Source of the DNA: Candidatus Zestomicrobium tamdykulense
GTDB taxonomy: Archaea > Thermoproteota > Thermoprotei_A > Sulfolobales > NBVN01
Assembly (NCBI GenBank): GCA_039889305.1
Contig: JAVVFV010000001.1
Coordinates: 55,980 to 119,979 of the forward strand
Direction of reading: 5' to 3'
Length of the DNA stretch: 64,000 nucleotides
A model generated the notes under the pieces. That model was not told where the DNA came from, searched no databases, and saw only the letters and a list, made by a program, of their open reading frames with translations. A program made the position numbers and the translations under genes. Shown here one piece after another: positions 39,635-48,979 of the stretch (positions are counted from its first letter, which is position 1; each line of letters opens with the position of its first letter).

Positions 39635-40336
39635 ATGCCAGGTTTAATACCGTTAATTGGTGAGCCGTTCCCTAAACTAGAGGTAGTTACTAATTACGGC
39701 AAGAAAGTATTGCCAGATGACTATAAAGGTAAGTGGTTTGTTCTCTTCAGTCACCCAGCAGATTTCACTCCAGTATGCACAACCGAGTTTGTTGCTTTCG
39801 CTATGAGACATGAAGACTTTAAGAAGCTGAATACGGAGCTTATAGGACTCAGCATAGACAGCAACTACAGCCATATTAAGTGGGTTGAGTGGATAAAAGA
39901 GAAATTAGGTTATGAGATTCCGTTCCCTATAATAGCTGATCCTAGAGGGCAGGTTGCTGAGAAACTTGGTTTGCTTCATGCTGAGTCTACTACAGCGACT
40001 GTTAGGGCTGTATTCATTGTGGATCCTGAAGGCATCATAAGAATTATCCTGTATTATCCTCTAGAGCTAGGCAGAAACATTGATGAGATACTCAGAATAC
40101 TGAAAGCTCTGCAGGTGCACGAAGAACATGGCGTAGCTATACCTGCTAACTGGCCTAACAACGAGTTGATTGGTGAGAAAGCAATAATACCACCCCCATC
40201 AACAATGGAGGAAATACCTGAGAGGTTAAGGAAGTACACGTGCTTTGACTGGTGGTTCTGCTATAAGGAAGTACCTGCGGAGGACGCATCTGTAGCAAGA
40301 GCCTTCCTGAAAAGGGTAGCAGAGACTCGTAAGTAA
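39635..40336 (+). CDS. peroxiredoxin (archaeal Prx6/1-Cys-like subfamily)
   Basis: Peroxidatic Cys motif [12 protein letters not shown]. The extended C-terminal arm with CFDWWFC is typical of archaeal Prx. Confidence 0.9.
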
Positions 40337-40418
40337 TTCATAGTTTTTCTGAACACAGAACAATTTTTTAACCCTAAGTTTTTAAGAACCCTCATGATTA
40401 TATCGTAGGGATCCCATA

Positions 40419-41642
40419 TTGGAGCGAGTTGAAGTGAGAGAGCTTCTGAAAGATTTAGTTGTTTTAAGAATTCTCGATAGAGACATAAGATATTTTGAGT
40501 CTCTTTGGGAAATACCTGAGGGTATTACGTATAACTCATACGTTCTTAGAACTAAGGAGGGGTTTGTCTTATTTGATACTGTGAAGCACGGCTTCTCTGA
40601 AGAATATATTGATGCTCTTAAGAAAGTAGTTGATTTGAGAGATATTAGGTATGTTGTTATTCAGCATATGGAGCCTGATCACAGCAGCTCCCTAAAAGCT
40701 CTGAGCACGTTGAGTGAGTTCAGAGCTGAGGTTTTAGGGAATCCCCTCACAGCCAAGCTCATAAAGTCTCTTTTAGGTATAGACGTTAAATTCAGGCCCG
40801 TAAAAGATGGTGATGAATTAAGACTTAGTGATACCGTGCTGAAGTTCCTTCACGCTCCCTGGCTACATTGGCCGGAAACTATTTTTACTTATATTGAGGA
40901 ACTCAAAGCTCTAATGACTTGCGACGCTTTCGGTGCTTACTCAATACCTCCCTACGTAATAAGTGATTTAACTTATTTGAAGACACAGTACGTTAGATTT
41001 ATGAGGAAATACTTCGTCAACGTAATAGGTCATTACAGAGACAATGTCATTAAAGCGTTAAGCAAGCTCACTACACTTAATCTAAAGCTAGAATTGATAG
41101 CTCCTTCGCACGGTGCTGCGTTACTTGGAGCTAACACTATTAACGAGGTTCTTAAGCTTTATCAGTCGTGGGCTGAGGGTAGGTCAGAAAACAAGAAGTT
41201 AGTTATTTTGTATACGTCTATGTACGGCTATAACGAGGAGATAGTTAAGAAGCTCCTAGAAATGATTAAGGGAGACGACATACGTGTTGAGGTATTTAAG
41301 TTCACGTCAAATTACAGGGATAACATCTCAGATTTTCTTGGAGAAGTGATTGATGCTAAGGTGGTTGTCTTAGTAACCTCAACATACGATAACTCTGTGT
41401 TCCCTATAACCAGGTACGTGCTAGAATTACTACTAACTAAATCTAATATAGAGAAACCACTCTACATAATAACTACTTACGGCTGGAACGACGCAGCATC
41501 AAGAGAAATAAGAAACATACTCACAAAATCTAAATTCAAACTTTCTAGTGAGTTATCGGTTAATAGCTTACTCACAGAAGCGGATCTCCAGAAATTAAGT
41601 AATGTGAGCAGGGAAATCCTGGCTTCTTTAGAGGCTTCTTAA
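40419..41642 (+). CDS. fprA: flavodiiron protein (FprA, metallo-beta-lactamase plus flavodoxin domains)
   Basis: Diiron motif HMEPDHSSS (H-x-E-x-D-H), a downstream HAPWLHWPE, and a C-terminal flavodoxin-like domain (VILYTSMYGYNE). Confidence 0.8.
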   Translation: MERVEVRELLKDLVVLRILDRDIRYFESLWEIPEGITYNSYVLRTKEGFVLFDTVKHGFSEEYIDALKKVVDLRDIRYVVIQHMEPDHSSSLKALSTLSEFRAEVLGNPLTAKLIKSLLGIDVKFRPVKDGDELRLSDTVLKFLHAPWLHWPETIFTYIEELKALMTCDAFGAYSIPPYVISDLTYLKTQYVRFMRKYFVNVIGHYRDNVIKALSKLTTLNLKLELIAPSHGAALLGANTINEVLKLYQSWAEGRSENKKLVILYTSMYGYNEEIVKKLLEMIKGDDIRVEVFKFTSNYRDNISDFLGEVIDAKVVVLVTSTYDNSVFPITRYVLELLLTKSNIEKPLYIITTYGWNDAASREIRNILTKSKFKLSSELSVNSLLTEADLQKLSNVSREILASLEAS

Positions 41643-41822
41643 GTCATTGAGTTACGATGTAGTTAGGTCTTTAGAAAATGAAGGATTTGCTTAAGTGTTT
41701 TTATGAGTGCATATTAGCAGGCTCCTAGCGAAATAACTGGTGAAAAAGACCTAAAAAGGCTTTCTTGCTGTTATTACATCATGAAATTAATTTCTTAAAG
41801 GTTCTTGAGTTAAGAAATCGAG

Positions 41823-42197
41823 TTACTCAACCTTAATTTCTTTCCTAGCTTCCCACAAGCCATGTATGTTGCAGTACTCTACAGCGTATATGACTCCACT
41901 CTTCTTCAGCTTTATCTTGAACTTTACTTCTGGTTCACTATACACAGGTTCTAACTCTACGGTTGTTAGTCTTATTGGGTTGAAGGACCTACCCTCCTCA
42001 TAGAAATAGAGTTCTATTCTCCTGATAGAGTGTTCTACAGTGTTGGGGTGAGGTCCTACGAAAATCTTAACCTCGAAAGCTTCGTTAGGTTTCACGGTAG
42101 CTGGTGCTTCTATTTTCGGAGTGTGTGTCTCGACTTTTGTTATTGCTTCACCAGGTGCTCTTTCCTGACTATATATTAGCTCGCCTAAACTCTTCAT
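41823..42197 (-). CDS. sor: superoxide reductase (neelaredoxin type, 1Fe-SOR)
   Basis: ETHTPKIE, GPHPNTVEHSI and CNIHGLW ligand motifs. 124 aa. Confidence 0.9.
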   Translation of the reverse strand: MKSLGELIYSQERAPGEAITKVETHTPKIEAPATVKPNEAFEVKIFVGPHPNTVEHSIRRIELYFYEEGRSFNPIRLTTVELEPVYSEPEVKFKIKLKKSGVIYAVEYCNIHGLWEARKEIKVE

Positions 42198-42368
42198 TTT
42201 GGATTCACTACCATATTTATTGTTTTGGGGTTAATAAAGATTGATTACCTAATTAAGTATCATGATAAGTTAACCGCGTTTATTTGATTCTTAATAAATT
42301 TGTGAGTATTACCTAACTTAAGCGAAATATTAGTGGAGAGTCCTATTGTTTATGCATGAAGAAATTAA

Positions 42369-42932
42369 TTACTTAAATCTTTCTTCTTTCCAAACATTTC
42401 CTCTGTGATGATATCCTAAAGCTTCCCAATACCCGTCTCTATACTCTTTAGTAAAGATTATCTCAGTTACCCACTTAGCACTCTTCCAGCCATATAAGTG
42501 TGGTATGAAGATTCTTGCTGGGAAGCCTTGCTCAAGACTTAAGGGTTTTCCGTTAATTCTTAACACGAGAAGACTTTTCTCATTGAGAAAATCTTCATAC
42601 GGTATTACTGTCGTGTACTTATCTAGGCTCTTCACATAAACCCACTCAACATCTCTTGATGGTTGTGCCTTTACAGCGAGTTTACGTAGTGAAACACCCT
42701 CCCAAATAACATTCCTCACAGACCACCCAGTAACGCAGTGGAAGTCTGAAACGTAGGATGTATCAACTATTTCAAGCAAATCATTGTAGGTGTATGTTAA
42801 AAGATTACTCACGTAGCCTCCTATTCTTAGTCTCCAAGAATCAAGATTTACTTCAGGCTGGCCGAGAATCCTGTAGATTATGAAATTAGGTATGGCTTTC
42901 TGTCCAGGAGGTAATGAGTTAAGCCCGCCCAA
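42369..42932 (-). CDS. molybdopterin-binding oxidoreductase domain protein (sulfite oxidase/YedY-MsrP fold)
   Basis: SDFHCVTGWS (Mo-ligand Cys context), WEGVSL, GFPARIFIPHLYGWKSAKWV. 187 aa, catalytic domain only. Confidence 0.7.
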   Translation of the reverse strand: MGGLNSLPPGQKAIPNFIIYRILGQPEVNLDSWRLRIGGYVSNLLTYTYNDLLEIVDTSYVSDFHCVTGWSVRNVIWEGVSLRKLAVKAQPSRDVEWVYVKSLDKYTTVIPYEDFLNEKSLLVLRINGKPLSLEQGFPARIFIPHLYGWKSAKWVTEIIFTKEYRDGYWEALGYHHRGNVWKEERFK

Positions 42933-43254
42933 AACCTACACCCTCACTAATAGTGCATAGAGACTTAATTAACTTGTTATTATAGGTTACGAACCTACAC
43001 GTACCTACGTAATCCTTCCTACAGAAAACCTTGTATGAGTATAGTATGTAGTCCGAACCTATAACTTCGTTCTCACTAAACACAATCTTGAGATCTCTTA
43101 AATTTAGTGTGTTGCTTAAGGAGTCCTTAATTAGGGATGCATGTTTATGTAGTTCCTCAATAAAGAAGACATCCTTAGGTTCGTGATCGCATGTAAAGAC
43201 AAATTTAATTCCTTTAGGTGTAAGTGCTTCAGGACTAGAGATCCGACACTTCAC
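42919..43254 (-). CDS. hypothetical protein, translationally coupled to the Mo-oxidoreductase domain protein
   Basis: 111-aa ORF whose 3' end overlaps the downstream gene by 14 nt. No motif recognised. Confidence 0.35.
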   Translation of the reverse strand: MKCRISSPEALTPKGIKFVFTCDHEPKDVFFIEELHKHASLIKDSLSNTLNLRDLKIVFSENEVIGSDYILYSYKVFCRKDYVGTCRFVTYNNKLIKSLCTISEGVGFGRA

Positions 43255-43312: not shown

Positions 43313-43403
43313 GGTAGCCGGGCGGGGATTCGAACCCCGGTCACGGGGGTTCCTCCCATCAGGTCCAAAGCCCCGCATCCTTGGCCACTAGACGACCCGG
43401 CTC
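43313..43403 (-). tRNA. tRNA-Gln (UUG) with a roughly 15-nt intron at the anticodon loop and an encoded CCA
   Basis: Minus-strand read: AGCCGGG-TC-GTCTAGTGGCCAAGGAT-G-CGGGG-CTTTGG[ACCTGATGGGAGGAA]C-CCCCG-TGAC-CGGGG-TTCGAAT-CCCCG-CCCGGCT-A-CCA. Closely parallels archaeal tRNA-Gln. Confidence 0.85.
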
Positions 43404-43438: not shown

Positions 43439-43957
43439 TCACAGCCTGTTTTTCGTAATAACGTAGAGTATTACGGCAAGCACTGCTTGAGGAGGTGAAG
43501 AAGGATCTAGTTCTCTCACCATCACGTGCTCTCCTAAACTAAGTTCTGTTTTAGGTGGGGGTGTATCGCTACCATTGATGAGCAAAACTACCCGTCCTTT
43601 CAAGTCATTAACTACTTCCTCAATATCTCTAGAAATCTCTGTCTTAGCTATGACTAGAACTTTATCAGGTTTTAACAAATCAATTACGTCGTTAGGTGAT
43701 GGTAGGATAAGTAATGGTTTACCTAATCTGTATAAGTACTTACTCACTTCAGGTACTCCTGACTGAGCAGCCATGCCGGAAACTCTCGTGAAGACTAGAC
43801 TACTTCTTAGGTTGCTTAACCCGTAAACTAGCTTAGCAAAATCAATGAGTCTTTGCGGAGATGAAACATTACTCACTACAACGATTAGTTCTAAGTTATT
43901 CTTGTGTGGAACTAGAGTTTGTGACTCCCCAATATTTATAGGGTCTTGATTCAACAC
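43439..43957 (-). CDS. conserved hypothetical protein (possibly SPOUT-like/DUF531-type fold)
   Basis: 172 aa. The alternating beta-alpha pattern LELIVVVSNVSSPQRLIDFAKL...GMAAQSGVPEV...LLILPSPNDVIDLL suggests this fold. Assignment is tentative. Confidence 0.3.
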   Translation of the reverse strand: MLNQDPINIGESQTLVPHKNNLELIVVVSNVSSPQRLIDFAKLVYGLSNLRSSLVFTRVSGMAAQSGVPEVSKYLYRLGKPLLILPSPNDVIDLLKPDKVLVIAKTEISRDIEEVVNDLKGRVVLLINGSDTPPPKTELSLGEHVMVRELDPSSPPQAVLAVILYVITKNRL

Positions 43958-44073: not shown

Positions 44074-45063
44074 TCATAAACGCTTAAGTAGTTCAAGAGC
44101 TATTGCTTTAGCTAGTGGTGGCGGGACAGCCTCACCAACCTGATTATATTGCTGGTCTCTACCCCCCAGGAACACGTGATTGTCAGGAAACCCCATTAGT
44201 CTGGCTTGTTCCCTAACAGTGAGTAATCTATTCTCGAAAGGATGTATGAATCTTGAGGAACCTAATACCGTCGGCGCAACCTTGTATGGGTGCAGCCTAA
44301 TAAGGTTTGGTAAGGAACGTCCTTCAGCACCTTCATACCTAACTGCTGAGTCACCCCACTTAAGTCTAATTGCTTTCTTCAGTTTAGACTTACTGAGGCT
44401 TGGTGGTGGTTCATGATTAGGTACTTGAGGCTCTGCCGAAGGTTCTGGGAGGTCCGAGATTGCCTCCAGCACAGTGACTAACTTACTTGACTTAGGTGGG
44501 TCTATACAAACATTAGACACGAAAACCCTGAGTCTTCTTGACGGAGTCCCGTAATCTTCTGCTTTGAGGAGATTAAAGTATACATTATATCCTGCTCTAC
44601 CGAATTCCTCCTTAAGCGCTGAACTTAGGTCCCCATCTAGTATTGCGGGGACATTCTCCATAACGAAGTAGTTAGGCTCTAAACATTCGAGGATTCTTAT
44701 GAATTCCAGGACTAGCCTGCCTGTCTCGTCTTTATACAGCCTATCTAGAGGGTTTTTCATTCTGTTAGGGTTAGAGCCTGTGAAGGGTTCGCAAGGTGGG
44801 GAACCTATCACTACGTCTATCTTCTCACGGTTTAGGAGGTTACGTAGTTTCCAGCACTCAAGACTGCGTATGTCTTCCGATATGATTAGTGATTTAGGGA
44901 AGTTAGATATGTATGTTTTGGTTGAGGCTTCATCAAACTCTACCGCTAGAATAGGTTCGAAACCAGCATCATGGAATCCTCTGCTGAAGCCTCCTCCACC
45001 AGCAAATAAATCAACTAGTGAGTTCTTTCTCTTCATTAGATATTTCCTCTTCAAGCTTAGCAA
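44074..45063 (-). CDS. C5 cytosine-specific methyltransferase (Dcm/Dnmt family)
   Basis: Motif [14 protein letters not shown], motif IV GSPPCEPFT, motif VI VMENVP, motif VIII RRLRVFV, motif IX REQARLMGFPD, motif X NQVGEAVPPPLA. The start is either 45063 or the Met at 45036. Confidence 0.85.
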   Translation of the reverse strand: MLSLKRKYLMKRKNSLVDLFAGGGGFSRGFHDAGFEPILAVEFDEASTKTYISNFPKSLIISEDIRSLECWKLRNLLNREKIDVVIGSPPCEPFTGSNPNRMKNPLDRLYKDETGRLVLEFIRILECLEPNYFVMENVPAILDGDLSSALKEEFGRAGYNVYFNLLKAEDYGTPSRRLRVFVSNVCIDPPKSSKLVTVLEAISDLPEPSAEPQVPNHEPPPSLSKSKLKKAIRLKWGDSAVRYEGAEGRSLPNLIRLHPYKVAPTVLGSSRFIHPFENRLLTVREQARLMGFPDNHVFLGGRDQQYNQVGEAVPPPLAKAIALELLKRL

Positions 45064-45544
45064 TCATTTTCTTTAGGAATTCTTTAGTTAATGAGTTGTC
45101 TTCAGGTGTTAAATCAGCTCCACATTTAGGGCACTTAAAATCGTTCTCGAAAGCTTCATCAAAAGTTAATCTAACGCCATCAACATCGCACACATAGAAA
45201 GTATTGCTGGACTCAAAGTTCAACCTAGCTTTAAGCTTACTTAAGACTTCTTTTTTCCTCTGTAGGAGGACTTGGTTGAGTCTACCACCGTCTATGAACC
45301 ACGTATAAGTAAACCTCCCATCCTCAGGACTTTGCTTTTTCTTGTAAGCAACAATACCTAGTGAGTGTAGTTCGTATAAAGCTCTCCTAACCTCCTGCTC
45401 GTTAATACCTGTTTCTGAAACGATTTCTGAGTCTGTTAGTTCTTTATTACGCTTAATTAAGACCTCAAAGACTGCTCTGCCAGCATCTCCTACGTACTCC
45501 TCAATAAATTTAGATAACTCGTCTAGCTTCTTGTGCTTACCCAA
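45011..45544 (-). CDS. tfe: transcription factor E alpha (TFE)
   Basis: N-terminal winged helix ([29 protein letters not shown]) plus zinc ribbon (YVCD...FKCPKCG). Confidence 0.85.
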
Positions 45545-46097
45545 CTCTAACCACCTTCTTCCCCTTTACTGACGGCTCTATATAGTATTTCGCATCAGAG
45601 AAAATAAGATGAAGTTCCTTGCCCTCAAAAAGCCTGTCTAAGAAAATCGCTAATGCAGCAACTTCCGAGTGTGGTTGATGACCTATCGCTACGTTGAAGT
45701 CTGCTAACTCATAGAAGATTCTCGGAACTTTAGAAGCACCAACTACTACTAACATATCTCTAGATAGAGATTTAATGGAATCAATTACGTTATCTATGTG
45801 TAAGCCGTACATTGTTAGGTGTATTACGGAACCACCAAGACTCTTCCACTCCCTAATAAACTCGACGCTGGAAACACCTGAAAGATACTTGAAGTCCTCA
45901 CAACCCCACCTTTCACAAACTTTCCTTATGCTTTCAGAAACACTTTGATCTTCTATATCACCCAACACGAAACATGATGCACCGAAAGCTCTTGCGGTAA
46001 GTGCTACGTGCGTGGTCACTCTCTTATCTCTCTCTGGTCTATGTCCTATCCTCAGGACACAAACCTTAGTTTTATTGTTGAGCAAGAGCCACCCCAA
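45537..46097 (-). CDS. trm56: tRNA (cytidine56-2'-O)-methyltransferase aTrm56 (SPOUT)
   Basis: [27 protein letters not shown] is the hallmark N-terminal motif of aTrm56. 186 aa. Confidence 0.85.
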
Positions 46098-46117: not shown

Positions 46118-47251
46118 CTAATTATGTTTATGAATGCTTGTTTTCGAAGTCTCGCTAATTCTTGGTGAGAGAAGCTCACATAAAGTCTTCTTGAGTTCAC
46201 TTAAGCCCTCACCTCTCAATGCAGAAACCTTAACTAAGCGCCAGCTCCATAAGTAGTTGGAAGTCATGTATTGTTTAACTAGGTTTTCTATGTTTTCTAG
46301 ATCATTGCTTAAGTCGATCTTGTTTAGAGCTATGACGAGAGGTTTTCCGAAGTACCCTATCTTAGATAGTATATTTAGAGACGTCCTCAGTTTCGACTCA
46401 ATAATTCTTGGTGGCTCAGAAGAATCTAGGACTAAGACTGCTAAGTCTGAGAGTGAGACTTCTTCTAACGTAGCATAAAAAGCTTCTATGACTTCGGGGG
46501 GTAGGTCTCTTATGAATCCTACAGTATCAACAAACACTACTTCAGAGCAATCAATCCATGCTAGTGCTGCTTTAGGAGAAATAGTTGTGAACATCTCAGG
46601 ACCTGTAGGTTTGTTTAACTTAGTTAGGGAATTAAACAGGGTTGTTTTCCCGGCATTAGCATATCCTGAAATAGCTACGTGGGGGAATCCTTTAGAAACT
46701 CTAAGTTCTCTTTCTTTTCTTCTCCTAGTTCTTAACTCATTTAAGTTTTTCCTTATTCTGATGAGTTTTCTCTTCATGTGGTTGTAGTATGTTTCGGTAG
46801 CATATTCTCCGGGACCCATGAAGCCTGGGAGCTCGCCAAGCTTAGCTTTCCGTATCCATTCCTTTACAATAGGTAACTGGTAAGTTATCTCAGCCATCTC
46901 TATCTGTAGCTTAGCTTCCTTAGAACCTGCGTGATCAGCAAATATTTCGAGAACCATTAGTATCTTATCTCTAACCTCTAGCTTCAGTTCTTTTATTAAG
47001 TTAACTACTTGACGTGGATGCAGAACTTCATAGATGTAGATTGAGTTTATGATTACTTTATTTGAGTTGAGTGTGTTGAGGAGATTCTTGACCTCGTTTA
47101 GGAGTCTTAAGTTAAGGAAGTAGTTCCTGTCTGGTCTGTAATTATTTCTTAGTACGAGCTTCTTAACTATGTTTAAACGTATTGTGTCGGCTAAGGATAT
47201 TGCTTCACTTAAGTCGTTTTCCCTAGCTACCAGTATTGATTTCTTACTCAT
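46118..47251 (-). CDS. hflX: GTPase HflX
   Basis: HflX N-terminal domain and coiled linker, then G domain VAISGYANAGKTTLFNSLT, DTVGF, NKID. Confidence 0.85.
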   Translation of the reverse strand: MSKKSILVARENDLSEAISLADTIRLNIVKKLVLRNNYRPDRNYFLNLRLLNEVKNLLNTLNSNKVIINSIYIYEVLHPRQVVNLIKELKLEVRDKILMVLEIFADHAGSKEAKLQIEMAEITYQLPIVKEWIRKAKLGELPGFMGPGEYATETYYNHMKRKLIRIRKNLNELRTRRRKERELRVSKGFPHVAISGYANAGKTTLFNSLTKLNKPTGPEMFTTISPKAALAWIDCSEVVFVDTVGFIRDLPPEVIEAFYATLEEVSLSDLAVLVLDSSEPPRIIESKLRTSLNILSKIGYFGKPLVIALNKIDLSNDLENIENLVKQYMTSNYLWSWRLVKVSALRGEGLSELKKTLCELLSPRISETSKTSIHKHN

Positions 47252-47254
47252 CAG

Positions 47255-47797
47255 TTACTCCTTCTCCTCCTTCCTCAGAACCATTACGTCACCTATTGTG
47301 AGGCCTGTACTGCCCTTACTTAAGGTTTTCGTAGTACTGACACTTGTGTCAACTACTGGTTCTAGTAACTGTATTTTGAGTACGTTCTCTAGCTTACGTG
47401 CTAGTTCTATTGAGGGGACTAGGCGTCCGGCCTCTATCCTCTTAATAACGTTCTCGCTCTCCTTAACAGCATTAGCAAGTACTTTCTGCGTCCACCCTAA
47501 CTTCTCCCTAGCTTTCTTCACTCTCTCGTGGTAATCTGGAACTACCTCGTACTCGTCTACTACCTTACTAATCTTCTGGGGTGTTTTGCTCGTTGCTTGA
47601 GTGGTTGGTGCGGGCTTACTTGAATGTGTTGGTTTTTGTGTGATTTCTCTTAGCTCAACACTTACAGCCTTCTTAGAGACTTTAGTGTAGCAAGAAAAAC
47701 ACAGAACTAGTCTACTCCCCTCCACGTAAACTACCCTAGCTTCTCTCTTCTTTATGGGTTTGCCACACATCTCGCAGTACGTTAGGTCGCTACTCAT
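47255..47797 (-). CDS. mbf1: archaeal MBF1 (zinc ribbon plus XRE-type HTH)
   Basis: CEMCGKPI...CFSC zinc ribbon. C-terminal HTH LGWTQKVLANAVKESENVIKRIEAG. Confidence 0.85.
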   Translation of the reverse strand: MSSDLTYCEMCGKPIKKREARVVYVEGSRLVLCFSCYTKVSKKAVSVELREITQKPTHSSKPAPTTQATSKTPQKISKVVDEYEVVPDYHERVKKAREKLGWTQKVLANAVKESENVIKRIEAGRLVPSIELARKLENVLKIQLLEPVVDTSVSTTKTLSKGSTGLTIGDVMVLRKEEKE

Positions 47798-47859: not shown

Positions 47860-48819
47860 TCACGTGGACAGGCATTCCTTAGATAGCGGGCACACAACGC
47901 ATTTCTTGCTGATGCAGTAAGTCTTGTTGTGTAGGAAGGCCATGGTTTGGAACCATCCATTCATAGGTCCTAACTCATTCTTCAGGAATGCTTCAATGCA
48001 TGTGTTGTTCTTCAGGCATGAATCACAGGAGTGCTTGAGGCAGTACTCCTTGACTGGTAGTCTTAGTTTGCTGATTGTTTTCCTTAAATTCCTTAGTCTG
48101 CTGAGGAGGCTTAATAGGTTGGTATCTATTGGGGCGTACCTGGAATCTAGTTTTATGAAGAGTATGTAAGCGTACAGAGTCTTAGGACCCACGCCAGAAC
48201 ATCTTAGAAGAACTCGTGAGTTTTCTGACGATCCTCTTAAGTAGTCTTTCAACCTTAAGTAACAGTCCAGAATCCTTGGTAACTCACGCACCTGATAACT
48301 ACTACTGATTTCAGCTGTTAGGAACTCCGGCTCAGCGTTAATTAGTGAGTCGATGGAGGGGAAAACCTTAAGGAGTTTCTTAACCCAGCCTACAGTGTTT
48401 CTGTGGTAGTCTGTGTTACGTGAGAGTATTATTGTGGTGAAGAGTTCTAGCTCGTCCAGTGGTGATGTAGGGATTCCTAAGTCACCATATAATGTCAGCA
48501 ACCTCTCCACCACATTCCTGAACCCCTCAGACACGCTACTCAAGTAATTTCTTGCGTCAAACCACGAACCACTTAAGTACTGCGAGTACTGAAGACACTC
48601 ACTCAAATCACTTAAAGCATAAAGCTTATTATCCTTAATAACTAATTTAGTCCCTCTACAATAACCATACTCCTTAACTACCTCAAAACCATCACCAGAT
48701 ATCGAGACTAGCGGTAAAAGAAAAGAAGGGTAGAAAAGCTTAAAGAAATCAATCCTCTCACGACCTTCAACAAACCTAAGAAAAGACTTAATCATAAGAA
48801 AACCCACAACAACTATCAC
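47860..48819 (-). CDS. HhH-GPD superfamily DNA glycosylase (EndoIII/Nth-like) with duplicated Cys motif
   Basis: TTIILSRNTDYHRNT, HhH LLRCSGVGPKTLYAYILF, and catalytic Asp context APIDTNLLSLLSRL. The C-terminus has two copies of Y-C-x4-C-x2-C-x5-C. Confidence 0.6.
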   Translation of the reverse strand: MIVVVGFLMIKSFLRFVEGRERIDFFKLFYPSFLLPLVSISGDGFEVVKEYGYCRGTKLVIKDNKLYALSDLSECLQYSQYLSGSWFDARNYLSSVSEGFRNVVERLLTLYGDLGIPTSPLDELELFTTIILSRNTDYHRNTVGWVKKLLKVFPSIDSLINAEPEFLTAEISSSYQVRELPRILDCYLRLKDYLRGSSENSRVLLRCSGVGPKTLYAYILFIKLDSRYAPIDTNLLSLLSRLRNLRKTISKLRLPVKEYCLKHSCDSCLKNNTCIEAFLKNELGPMNGWFQTMAFLHNKTYCISKKCVVCPLSKECLST

Positions 48820-48904: not shown

Positions 48905-48979
48905 TGGGCCCGCGGGGACTCGAACCCCGGACCTCCGCCGCGTCAGGGCGGCGTCCTAACCAGGCTAGACGACGGGCCC
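48905..48979 (-). tRNA. tRNA-Val (GAC), intronless
   Basis: Minus-strand read: GGGCCCG-TC-GTCTAGCCTGGTTAGGAC-G-CCGCC-CTGACGC-GGCGG-AGGTC-CGGGG-TTCGAGT-CCCCG-CGGGCCC-A. CCA is not fully encoded. Confidence 0.9.

Follow-up and report, generated by a model that had tools for sequence, protein, structure and literature searches.

An orphan C5 cytosine methyltransferase gene of the HG2 family, seated behind tfe and ahead of a SPOUT-fold gene in a Sulfolobales archaeon

At 80 °C, 5-methylcytosine (m5C) makes DNA prone to mutation, and a gene for a C5 cytosine methyltransferase (MTase) among the core genes of a presumed hyperthermophile raises the question of what it methylates and in what role. We addressed this question for such a gene in Candidatus Zestomicrobium tamdykulense (Sulfolobales), in a stretch of 64,000 nucleotides (contig JAVVFV010000001.1, positions 55,980 to 119,979 of the forward strand; hereafter the window). 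Its most likely function, to which we give a probability of roughly 0.6, is orphan methylation of DNA at CCWGG in a housekeeping or epigenetic role, by an enzyme made together with transcription factor E alpha (TFE-alpha, the product of tfe). The gene is a further member of an already published family and not a novelty. What is new is that it is seated in an old, tightly overlapping and presumably co-transcribed operon, behind tfe and ahead of a gene for a SPOUT-fold protein. A preliminary description of the locus, made from the sequence alone, had found a core-embedded C5 MTase in a hyperthermophile worthy of note; the core setting stands, but the family had already been described, which makes the gene less remarkable than it seemed, and m5C in such organisms is already treated as an open conundrum in the literature.

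The gene and its distinctive motif are as follows.

44074..45036, minus strand: C5 cytosine MTase of 320 aa, ortholog of the HG2 or 'PCE' family (PF00145, TIGR00675, AlphaFold2 (AF2) model, homolog alignment)
44779..44799, minus strand: motif IV, PPCEPFT, with a family-specific Glu where Gln is usual (catalytic Cys at 44793-44791, Glu at 44790-44788)

The open reading frame (ORF) spans 44074..45063 on the minus strand, and its earlier assignment as a C5 MTase is borne out by matches to Pfam PF00145 (E=1.2e-51) and TIGR00675 (dcm, E=6.7e-43), as well as by full-length alignment with M.HaeIII and 8yf3 in a PDB sequence search. All the motifs quoted in the preliminary description (FAGGGG, PPCEPFT, ENV, RxR, GFPD and GEAVPPPLA) are in the sequence, where we read DLFAGGGGF (motif I), GSPPCEPFT (IV), MENVP (VI), GTPSRRLRVF (VIII), REQARLMGFPD (IX) and QVGEAVPPPLA (X). 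The glycines of motif I, Cys82, Glu83, Glu127 of ENV and Arg168/Arg170 are invariant in an alignment of 20 homologs. As the start codon we favour the ATG at 45036, where the N-termini of 19 homologs align (M-x5-L-V-D-L-F); the in-frame TTGs at 45054 and 45063 are less likely. An exact-sequence look-up of the 320-aa product gave no database record, and the deposited annotation probably has a different start. The AF2 model (pLDDT 93.7) is closest in Foldseek to DNMT1/MET1, 3g7u and M.HaeIII, with DNMT1/MET1 and M.HaeIII matched in structures that contain DNA, and the best 50 matches are all DNA enzymes. M.HaeIII and DNMT1/MET1 are the best matches overall (TM-score 0.74-0.81, Foldseek E ~1e-24, phmmer ~1e-29), and motif X, GEAVPPPLAKAI, scarcely departs from that of DNMT1, GNAVPPPLAKAI; they differ from the window MTase in their targets, and the latter lacks the eukaryotic regulatory domains and carries PCE, SRRxR and GEAV. 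The GC content of the gene (0.39-0.45) lies within that of the surrounding 14 kb (0.36-0.47), with no compositional anomaly. The gene is a genuine and complete C5 cytosine MTase and, judging from its conserved residues, its product is probably active.

In order to place the enzyme in its family, one genome per GTDB species was scanned, which yielded 553 relatives in all crenarchaeal orders, Thermococcus and Archaeoglobaceae; the analysis of loci covers the 80 that were retrieved. Their identity to the window MTase is 47-66% (84% for the locus of Zestosphaera), and they include Desulfurococcales, Sulfolobaceae, Pyrodictiaceae, Acidilobaceae, Stygiolobus, Vulcanisaeta, Thermoproteus, Pyrobaculum and Thermoproteaceae, and also Thermofilaceae, Thermococcus, Archaeoglobaceae, Nezha-, Culex- and Geothermarchaeota and one Helarchaeote. 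Among protein matches, the best 120 are 57-89% identical and belong to Desulfurococcales, 'Sulfolobales', Thermofilaceae and Staphylothermus, the figure of 89% being that of a Zestosphaera protein. According to PMC10609329, the HG2 'persistent' orphan m5C MTases occur in 99/100 complete genomes of Crenarchaeota, in most Methanococci and in Pyrococcus, and two of them, M.SuaII from Sulfolobus acidocaldarius and M.Asp7I from Acidilobus sp. 7A, produced C(m5C)WGG by RIMS-seq when cloned in E. coli.

The window MTase is 54% identical over 314 aa, in identical synteny, to a protein annotated as 'DNA cytosine methyltransferase [Sulfolobus acidocaldarius]' (P0157). We infer that this protein is M.SuaII, from the single m5C MTase gene annotated in the S. 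acidocaldarius genome and from the mean of 1.0 m5C gene per Sulfolobales genome given in the same source (PMC10609329). It is probably saci_0651, which is listed under arCOG category L, because TFE-alpha is saci_0652. In the target-recognition domain (TRD) the window MTase is 39-45% identical to the orthologs of Sulfolobaceae and Acidilobaceae, against 46-54% in the catalytic domain of the same orthologs, and this degree of TRD identity makes it likely that the CCWGG specificity is common to them. The window MTase is thus an HG2 ortholog: it has the fold, the motifs with PCE in motif IV and the length of ~320 aa, it is orthologous to M.SuaII, it is an orphan, and the family is inherited vertically and is nearly universal across the phylum. 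Nothing structural sets it apart from M.SuaII and M.Asp7I, its own specificity and activity being those suggested by homology. The earlier proposal of an orphan DNA MTase with a role outside defence agrees with the published view of HG2 as CCWGG m5C enzymes (PMC10609329).

How the gene is embedded is seen from its neighbours, all of them on the same strand.

45011..45036, minus strand: tfe/MTase overlap of 26 nt, the 3' end of tfe lying over the 5' end of the MTase gene (sequence read directly)
45011..45544, minus strand: tfe, transcription factor E alpha (PF02002, E=4.6e-17)
45537..46097, minus strand: trm56, tRNA Cm56 2'-O-methyltransferase of the SPOUT class, overlapping tfe by 8 nt (PF01994, E=2.3e-46)
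46118..47251, minus strand: hflX GTPase (GTP-bdg_N, GTP-bdg_M and MMR_HSR1 domains)
47255..47797, minus strand: mbf1-like helix-turn-helix gene, first in the tight string (PF01381 HTH_3, E=3.7e-11)
43439..43957, minus strand: DUF2122/COG4080 protein of predicted SPOUT fold, 116 nt downstream of the MTase gene (PF09895, E=2e-25)
43315..43402, minus strand: intron-containing tRNA at the end of the same-strand string (ARAGORN; Rfam RF00005, 49.7 bits)

The TGA of tfe (45013-45011) has two bases in common with the Asp codon (45012-45010) that opens motif I of the MTase, and therefore every usable MTase start falls inside tfe, as had been said of it; the upstream TTGs would overlap tfe by more than the 26 nt of the ATG. 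The identities given earlier to mbf1, hflX, trm56 and tfe are upheld by Pfam and NCBIfam matches. For tfe these are NF004910 (E=3.5e-41) and TIGR00373 (E=1.7e-34), both under the curated cut-offs, and for trm56 NF003048 (E=4.6e-64), at 215.7 bits slightly under the 223-bit cut-off. Spacing is -8 nt between tfe and trm56, 20 nt between trm56 and hflX, and 3 nt between hflX and mbf1. The MTase does not close the series, as the preliminary description had it: the DUF2122 gene, a conserved partner which it missed, follows on the same strand, and then the tRNA. The anticodon loop of the latter is CUUUGGA; ARAGORN gave no type, and it is probably a tRNA-Gln UUG.

Using tblastn and hidden Markov model searches, we found TFE immediately upstream of the MTase on the same strand in 43 of the 73 loci with sufficient flank. 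The complete order mbf1-hflX-trm56-tfe-MTase-DUF2122 is present in ~35 loci, in Desulfurococcaceae, Pyrodictiaceae, Ignisphaera, Acidilobaceae and Sulfolobaceae. The preliminary description had advised a check of the tfe overlap in relatives: of the 39 TFE-linked loci that could be evaluated, 21 have a TGA/Asp-codon register identical to that of the window, Stygiolobus and Acidilobaceae among them, while the others have ATGA-type overlaps of 4 nt or gaps of a few nucleotides. In S. acidocaldarius the order (HTH_3, HflX, Trm56, TFIIE_alpha, DNA_methylase, DUF2122) is identical to that of the window, with overlaps of 23 nt between tfe and the MTase and of 8 nt between the MTase and DUF2122. The conservation of this gene order over Sulfolobales/Desulfurococcales is new context, the available text of PMC10609329 making no mention of the tfe operon or of the COG4080 neighbour in its account of HG2.

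The product of the DUF2122 gene in the window is 100% identical to a protein of the MAG Desulfurococcaceae archaeon TW002, a relative of Zestosphaera. The gene adjoins the MTase in 51 of the 80 loci: on the downstream side it shares the strand of the MTase in 43 and is on the opposite one in 5, and in 3 it is upstream. The pair persists without linkage to tfe in Thermofilaceae, where it lies behind a 728-aa helicase-like gene, and in Nezhaarchaeales, Culexarchaeum and Geothermarchaeota. In Thermoproteus and Pyrobaculum, the ORF downstream of the MTase starts with Cys-rich, zinc-ribbon-like motifs (NMD3-like, by eye). The pair is probably also found in Methanocaldococcus, to judge from how the genes are numbered in two papers: Tkaczuk 2007 has MJ1199 as its representative of COG4080, and MJ1200 is a PCE MTase (PMC2615612). 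Both NCBI and Pfam label DUF2122 a 'RecB-family nuclease'. Its AF2 model (pLDDT 88) matches only SPOUT methyltransferases in Foldseek (TrmJ, with that of S. acidocaldarius among the matches, TrmH, TrmL/YibK and RlmR; E 1e-7 to 1e-5, TM-score 0.6-0.78). This agrees with Tkaczuk 2007, where COG4080 was predicted to be SPOUT, the nuclease label was called spurious and the catalytic Arg/Ser of 2'-O-MTases was reported absent. On the model comparison, which covers the overall fold, we regard the protein as having a SPOUT fold and not as a nuclease. Some DUF2122 members are already named 'SpoU rRNA methylase family enzyme' by JGI. A literature search for DUF2122/PF09895 found no mention of it, and as COG4080 it appears in Tkaczuk 2007 only. 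Separately, two short direct repeats, one of 37 nt at 70% and the other of 23 nt at 78%, are found between DUF2122 and trm56 (43597-43689 against 45728-45790). Their spacing is nearly equal, at 2131 and 2101 nt, and either common SPOUT ancestry or chance may account for them.

That nuclease label could mislead others into calling the locus a restriction-modification (R-M) system and, together with generic 'MTase_II' and DruM matches in PADLOC, it is what would speak for the MTase as the modifying partner in a type II R-M or other defence system, or as what is left of one after recent domestication. Considered as a cognate nuclease or as an analogue of Vsr, DUF2122 gave no PDB sequence match and no nuclease similarity. 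A PADLOC search of the neighbours and a repeat scan found no restriction endonuclease, Vsr, integrase or flanking repeat near the MTase, as the preliminary description had stated. None of the neighbours has a nuclease or defence match in Pfam or PADLOC, the ORFs 42919-43254 and 47860-48819 being without annotation. An origin in mobile elements was considered and rejected: phage and plasmid relatives are at best 32-40% identical, and those among the matches listed are all distant bacterial MTases. Type II R-M systems have an adjacent cognate endonuclease and a patchy, mobile distribution; here we found no such endonuclease, and the gene is near-universal and syntenic over an order-level clade. 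Hence an R-M origin of the present state is extremely improbable, and the earlier idea of a domesticated remnant, faced with a near-universal family with a conserved TRD and without close phage or plasmid relatives, finds little support.

The orphan with which the window MTase invites comparison is Dcm of E. coli, also an orphan C5 MTase and with C(m5C)WGG as the reported common target. The Dcm-type PDB chains 3lx6 and 3me5 match only residues 7-141 of the window MTase, and therefore its TRD is not detectably related to theirs. In E. coli, dcm overlaps its downstream partner gene, that of Vsr. The window MTase, in contrast, has no adjacent Vsr, its partner has a predicted SPOUT fold and its overlap is with the upstream tfe.

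The Glu of PPCEPFT, remarked on earlier as unusual, is indeed a family hallmark. A search of 1.84 billion cluster representatives found PCE in almost all matches above ~200 bits and predominantly PCQ under that score, and E83 is invariant in the 20 aligned homologs. The family has further substitutions in motif VIII, where SRRxR replaces QxRxR, and in motif X, where GE(A/S)V replaces GN(A/S)V. Among near cluster representatives, one protein of 2643 aa (P0256) has four tandem PCE-type domains (GVPCEPFS, GVPCEAFS, GVPCEPYS and GVPCEPFS), and another of 2041 aa (P0268) has one PCE-type C5 MTase domain (GPPCEGFS).

These three substitutions in catalytic motifs IV, VIII and X (PCE, SRRxR, GE(A/S)V) could be read as signs that the MTase is kept for a non-catalytic role or another chemistry, as a nucleic-acid-binding partner of the transcription machinery or with a cofactor other than S-adenosylmethionine (SAM). 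This reading also has in its favour the obligate, ancient translational overlap with tfe, and that 8yf3, a full-length PDB relative, is a C5-carboxymethyltransferase. But the catalytic Cys, the Glu of ENV, RxR and the SAM-binding motif I are all invariant, and two orthologs yield a signal read as m5C by RIMS-seq (PMC10609329). We hold this explanation to be very unlikely.

The harder question is whether the substrate is DNA or RNA. Several results weigh against CCWGG methylation of DNA as the native function. In the window, CCWGG occurs 85 times where 98.7 are expected (observed/expected, O/E, 0.86; z -1.4), which is no depletion, and its deamination products are not in excess there either; in 302 kb of TFE-linked crenarchaeal loci the O/E is 0.99, and the deamination products CTWGG/CCWAG, at 1.07, are not in excess. 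Over the crenarchaeal loci, O/E for CCWGG is 0.88-0.99. These flat counts fit little methylation in vivo; very efficient repair would give the same counts. A dot blot of S. acidocaldarius DNA detected no m5C, and we found no published expression data for saci_0651. The most conserved neighbours of the MTase are related to RNA: Trm56 methylates tRNA, HflX is a ribosome GTPase, and the third is the SPOUT-fold protein. Finally, for MJ0563 and MJ1200 of Methanocaldococcus jannaschii, Zheng et al. (PMC2615612) pointed to 'PCE rather than PCQ'; incorporation into lambda DNA was no more than 1-2x background in their hands, and they doubted that these are DNA MTases, leaving RNA or protein targets open. 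We compared these two enzymes by their published description: they share PCE for PCQ with the window MTase and, by gene numbering, MJ1200 lies beside MJ1199, as the window MTase lies beside its own COG4080 gene; they differ in being euryarchaeal, in having no link to tfe and in lacking clear DNA activity in vitro. Two HG2 copies are counted in Methanocaldococcus in PMC10609329.

All this could be explained if the native enzyme were mainly an m5C methyltransferase of tRNA or rRNA on a DNA-MTase fold, like Dnmt2 (TRDMT1), perhaps acting with COG4080, the CCWGG methylation in E. coli being then a side activity of over-expression. RNA-related neighbours, the pairing of MTase and COG4080 where linkage to tfe is lost, the zinc-ribbon-like ORF of Thermoproteus and Pyrobaculum, and a motif IV with PCE in place of the PCQ found in confirmed DNA enzymes would all fit, and so would the mutagenicity of m5C in DNA at high temperature. 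RNA m5C, according to PMC11344067, is abundant in hyperthermophiles. In the main text of a paper on the m5C epitranscriptome of T. kodakarensis, 'DNA methyltransferase', 'Dcm' and PF00145 do not occur, and Dnmt2 is in the reference list only.

The likeness to Dnmt2 is one of fold and of a motif IV ending in PFT, and an RNA target is conceivable. The motif IV of Dnmt2, which we take to be PPCQPFT, compares with PPCEPFT here. Similarity, however, is far weaker than to DNA enzymes: in PDB sequence searches DNA MTases match at ~1e-30 and Dnmt2 chains at 3e-9 to 9e-4, there is no Dnmt2 entry in the Foldseek best 50, and the 'CFT' motif of the Dnmt2 TRD is absent from the sequence. PMC10609329 describes, for two diverged orthologs, clean, sequence-specific CCWGG methylation of the chromosome in vivo in E. 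coli, which implies a functional recognition domain for duplex DNA. The gene neighbourhood is circumstantial. Of the RNA option in the preliminary description, then, the PCE hallmark and the undetected DNA activity of the M. jannaschii enzymes stand in its favour, while the closer similarity to DNA MTases and the DNA methylation by two orthologs do not; we consider it unlikely on balance, if still deserving attention.

A different picture is seen in euryarchaeal carriers. In six MTase loci of Thermococcus and Archaeoglobaceae (L043, L055, L056, L060, L067 and L079), CCWGG occurs 26 times where 64.6 are expected (O/E 0.40, z -4.8), in a sample that is small (57 kb) and a grouping that is partly post hoc. 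Among the 16 NNWNN palindromes none is more depleted; GGWCC is low too, at 0.47. The depletion could come from restriction at CCWGG, of which PspGI-like systems are presumably an example, or from real deamination pressure on m5C. It suggests effects at the DNA level in these organisms at least, which speaks against an RNA substrate there.

One more reading takes up the pair itself. The PCE MTase and COG4080 may be the two genes of an ancient module in hyperthermophilic archaea whose substrate in vivo is RNA or a transcription-associated nucleic-acid intermediate, and not bulk duplex DNA; the pair is conserved in lineages as far apart as Sulfolobales, Thermofilaceae, Nezha-, Culex- and Geothermarchaeota, with Methanocaldococcus as a probable addition. 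We regard it as speculative and rather doubtful. If true, it would explain a universal m5C MTase at 80 °C without detectable m5C or a crenarchaeal CCWGG footprint, and through the coupling to TFE-alpha a mark on RNA or DNA would be linked with basal transcription.

Under the reading that we prefer, orphan CCWGG methylation of DNA, the enzyme would follow the canonical C5 route known from its homologs: Cys82 of PPCEPFT would attack C6 of a flipped-out cytosine, Glu127 of ENV would protonate N3, and the methyl group of SAM would be moved to C5. Its target in duplex DNA would most likely be the inner C of CCWGG, because the TRD is conserved across the family and two orthologs gave this specificity in a heterologous host. 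The MTase is a vertically inherited core gene, outside any restriction system, and would be the fifth in a putative mbf1-hflX-trm56-tfe-MTase transcript. The obligate overlap probably couples translation of the MTase to that of tfe, in which case the MTase should be made whenever TFE-alpha is made. Its role would be one of housekeeping and not of defence, perhaps through an epigenetic or chromatin mark that is scarce or made only under certain conditions. The least certain part is that it might act jointly with the adjacent SPOUT-fold COG4080 protein.

Some observations concern the surroundings. Upstream of mbf1, a 319-aa ORF (47860-48819, minus strand) without a family has a helix-hairpin-helix-like 'GVGPKT' and two C-terminal Cys clusters, features reminiscent of HhH-GPD/FeS DNA glycosylases. 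A helix-hairpin-helix-type G:T glycosylase would bear on the repair of deaminated m5C; the ORF was considered as a candidate, but its best match is HHH_5 at E=0.14, sub-threshold, with no support from Pfam, PDB or PADLOC. Upstream of this ORF lies a tRNA-Val(GAC) (48905-48979, minus strand), which with the tRNA at 43315-43402 brackets the conserved string. In S. acidocaldarius (L081, 6890-8137), a gene for S-adenosylhomocysteine hydrolase is found 2 kb downstream of the MTase-DUF2122 pair on the opposite strand; the ORFs listed for the window from 39.6 to 48.8 kb include no equivalent. The string is followed immediately downstream, at 39635-42932 of the window, by an oxygen-detoxification cluster:

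39635-40336: 1-Cys peroxiredoxin
40419-41642: ODP/flavodiiron-like protein
41823-42197: desulfoferrodoxin/superoxide reductase
42369-42932: molybdopterin oxidoreductase-domain protein

What this locus adds to a known family is context: the MTase is hard-wired behind TFE-alpha, with the stop codon of tfe inside its motif I, and is accompanied by a mislabelled protein of predicted SPOUT fold. The tfe and COG4080 context argues against the proposal that the MTase gene is simply silenced. Taken with the missing CCWGG footprint in Crenarchaeota, the tfe overlap and the SPOUT partner sharpen the question of whether the target of these enzymes is DNA or RNA.

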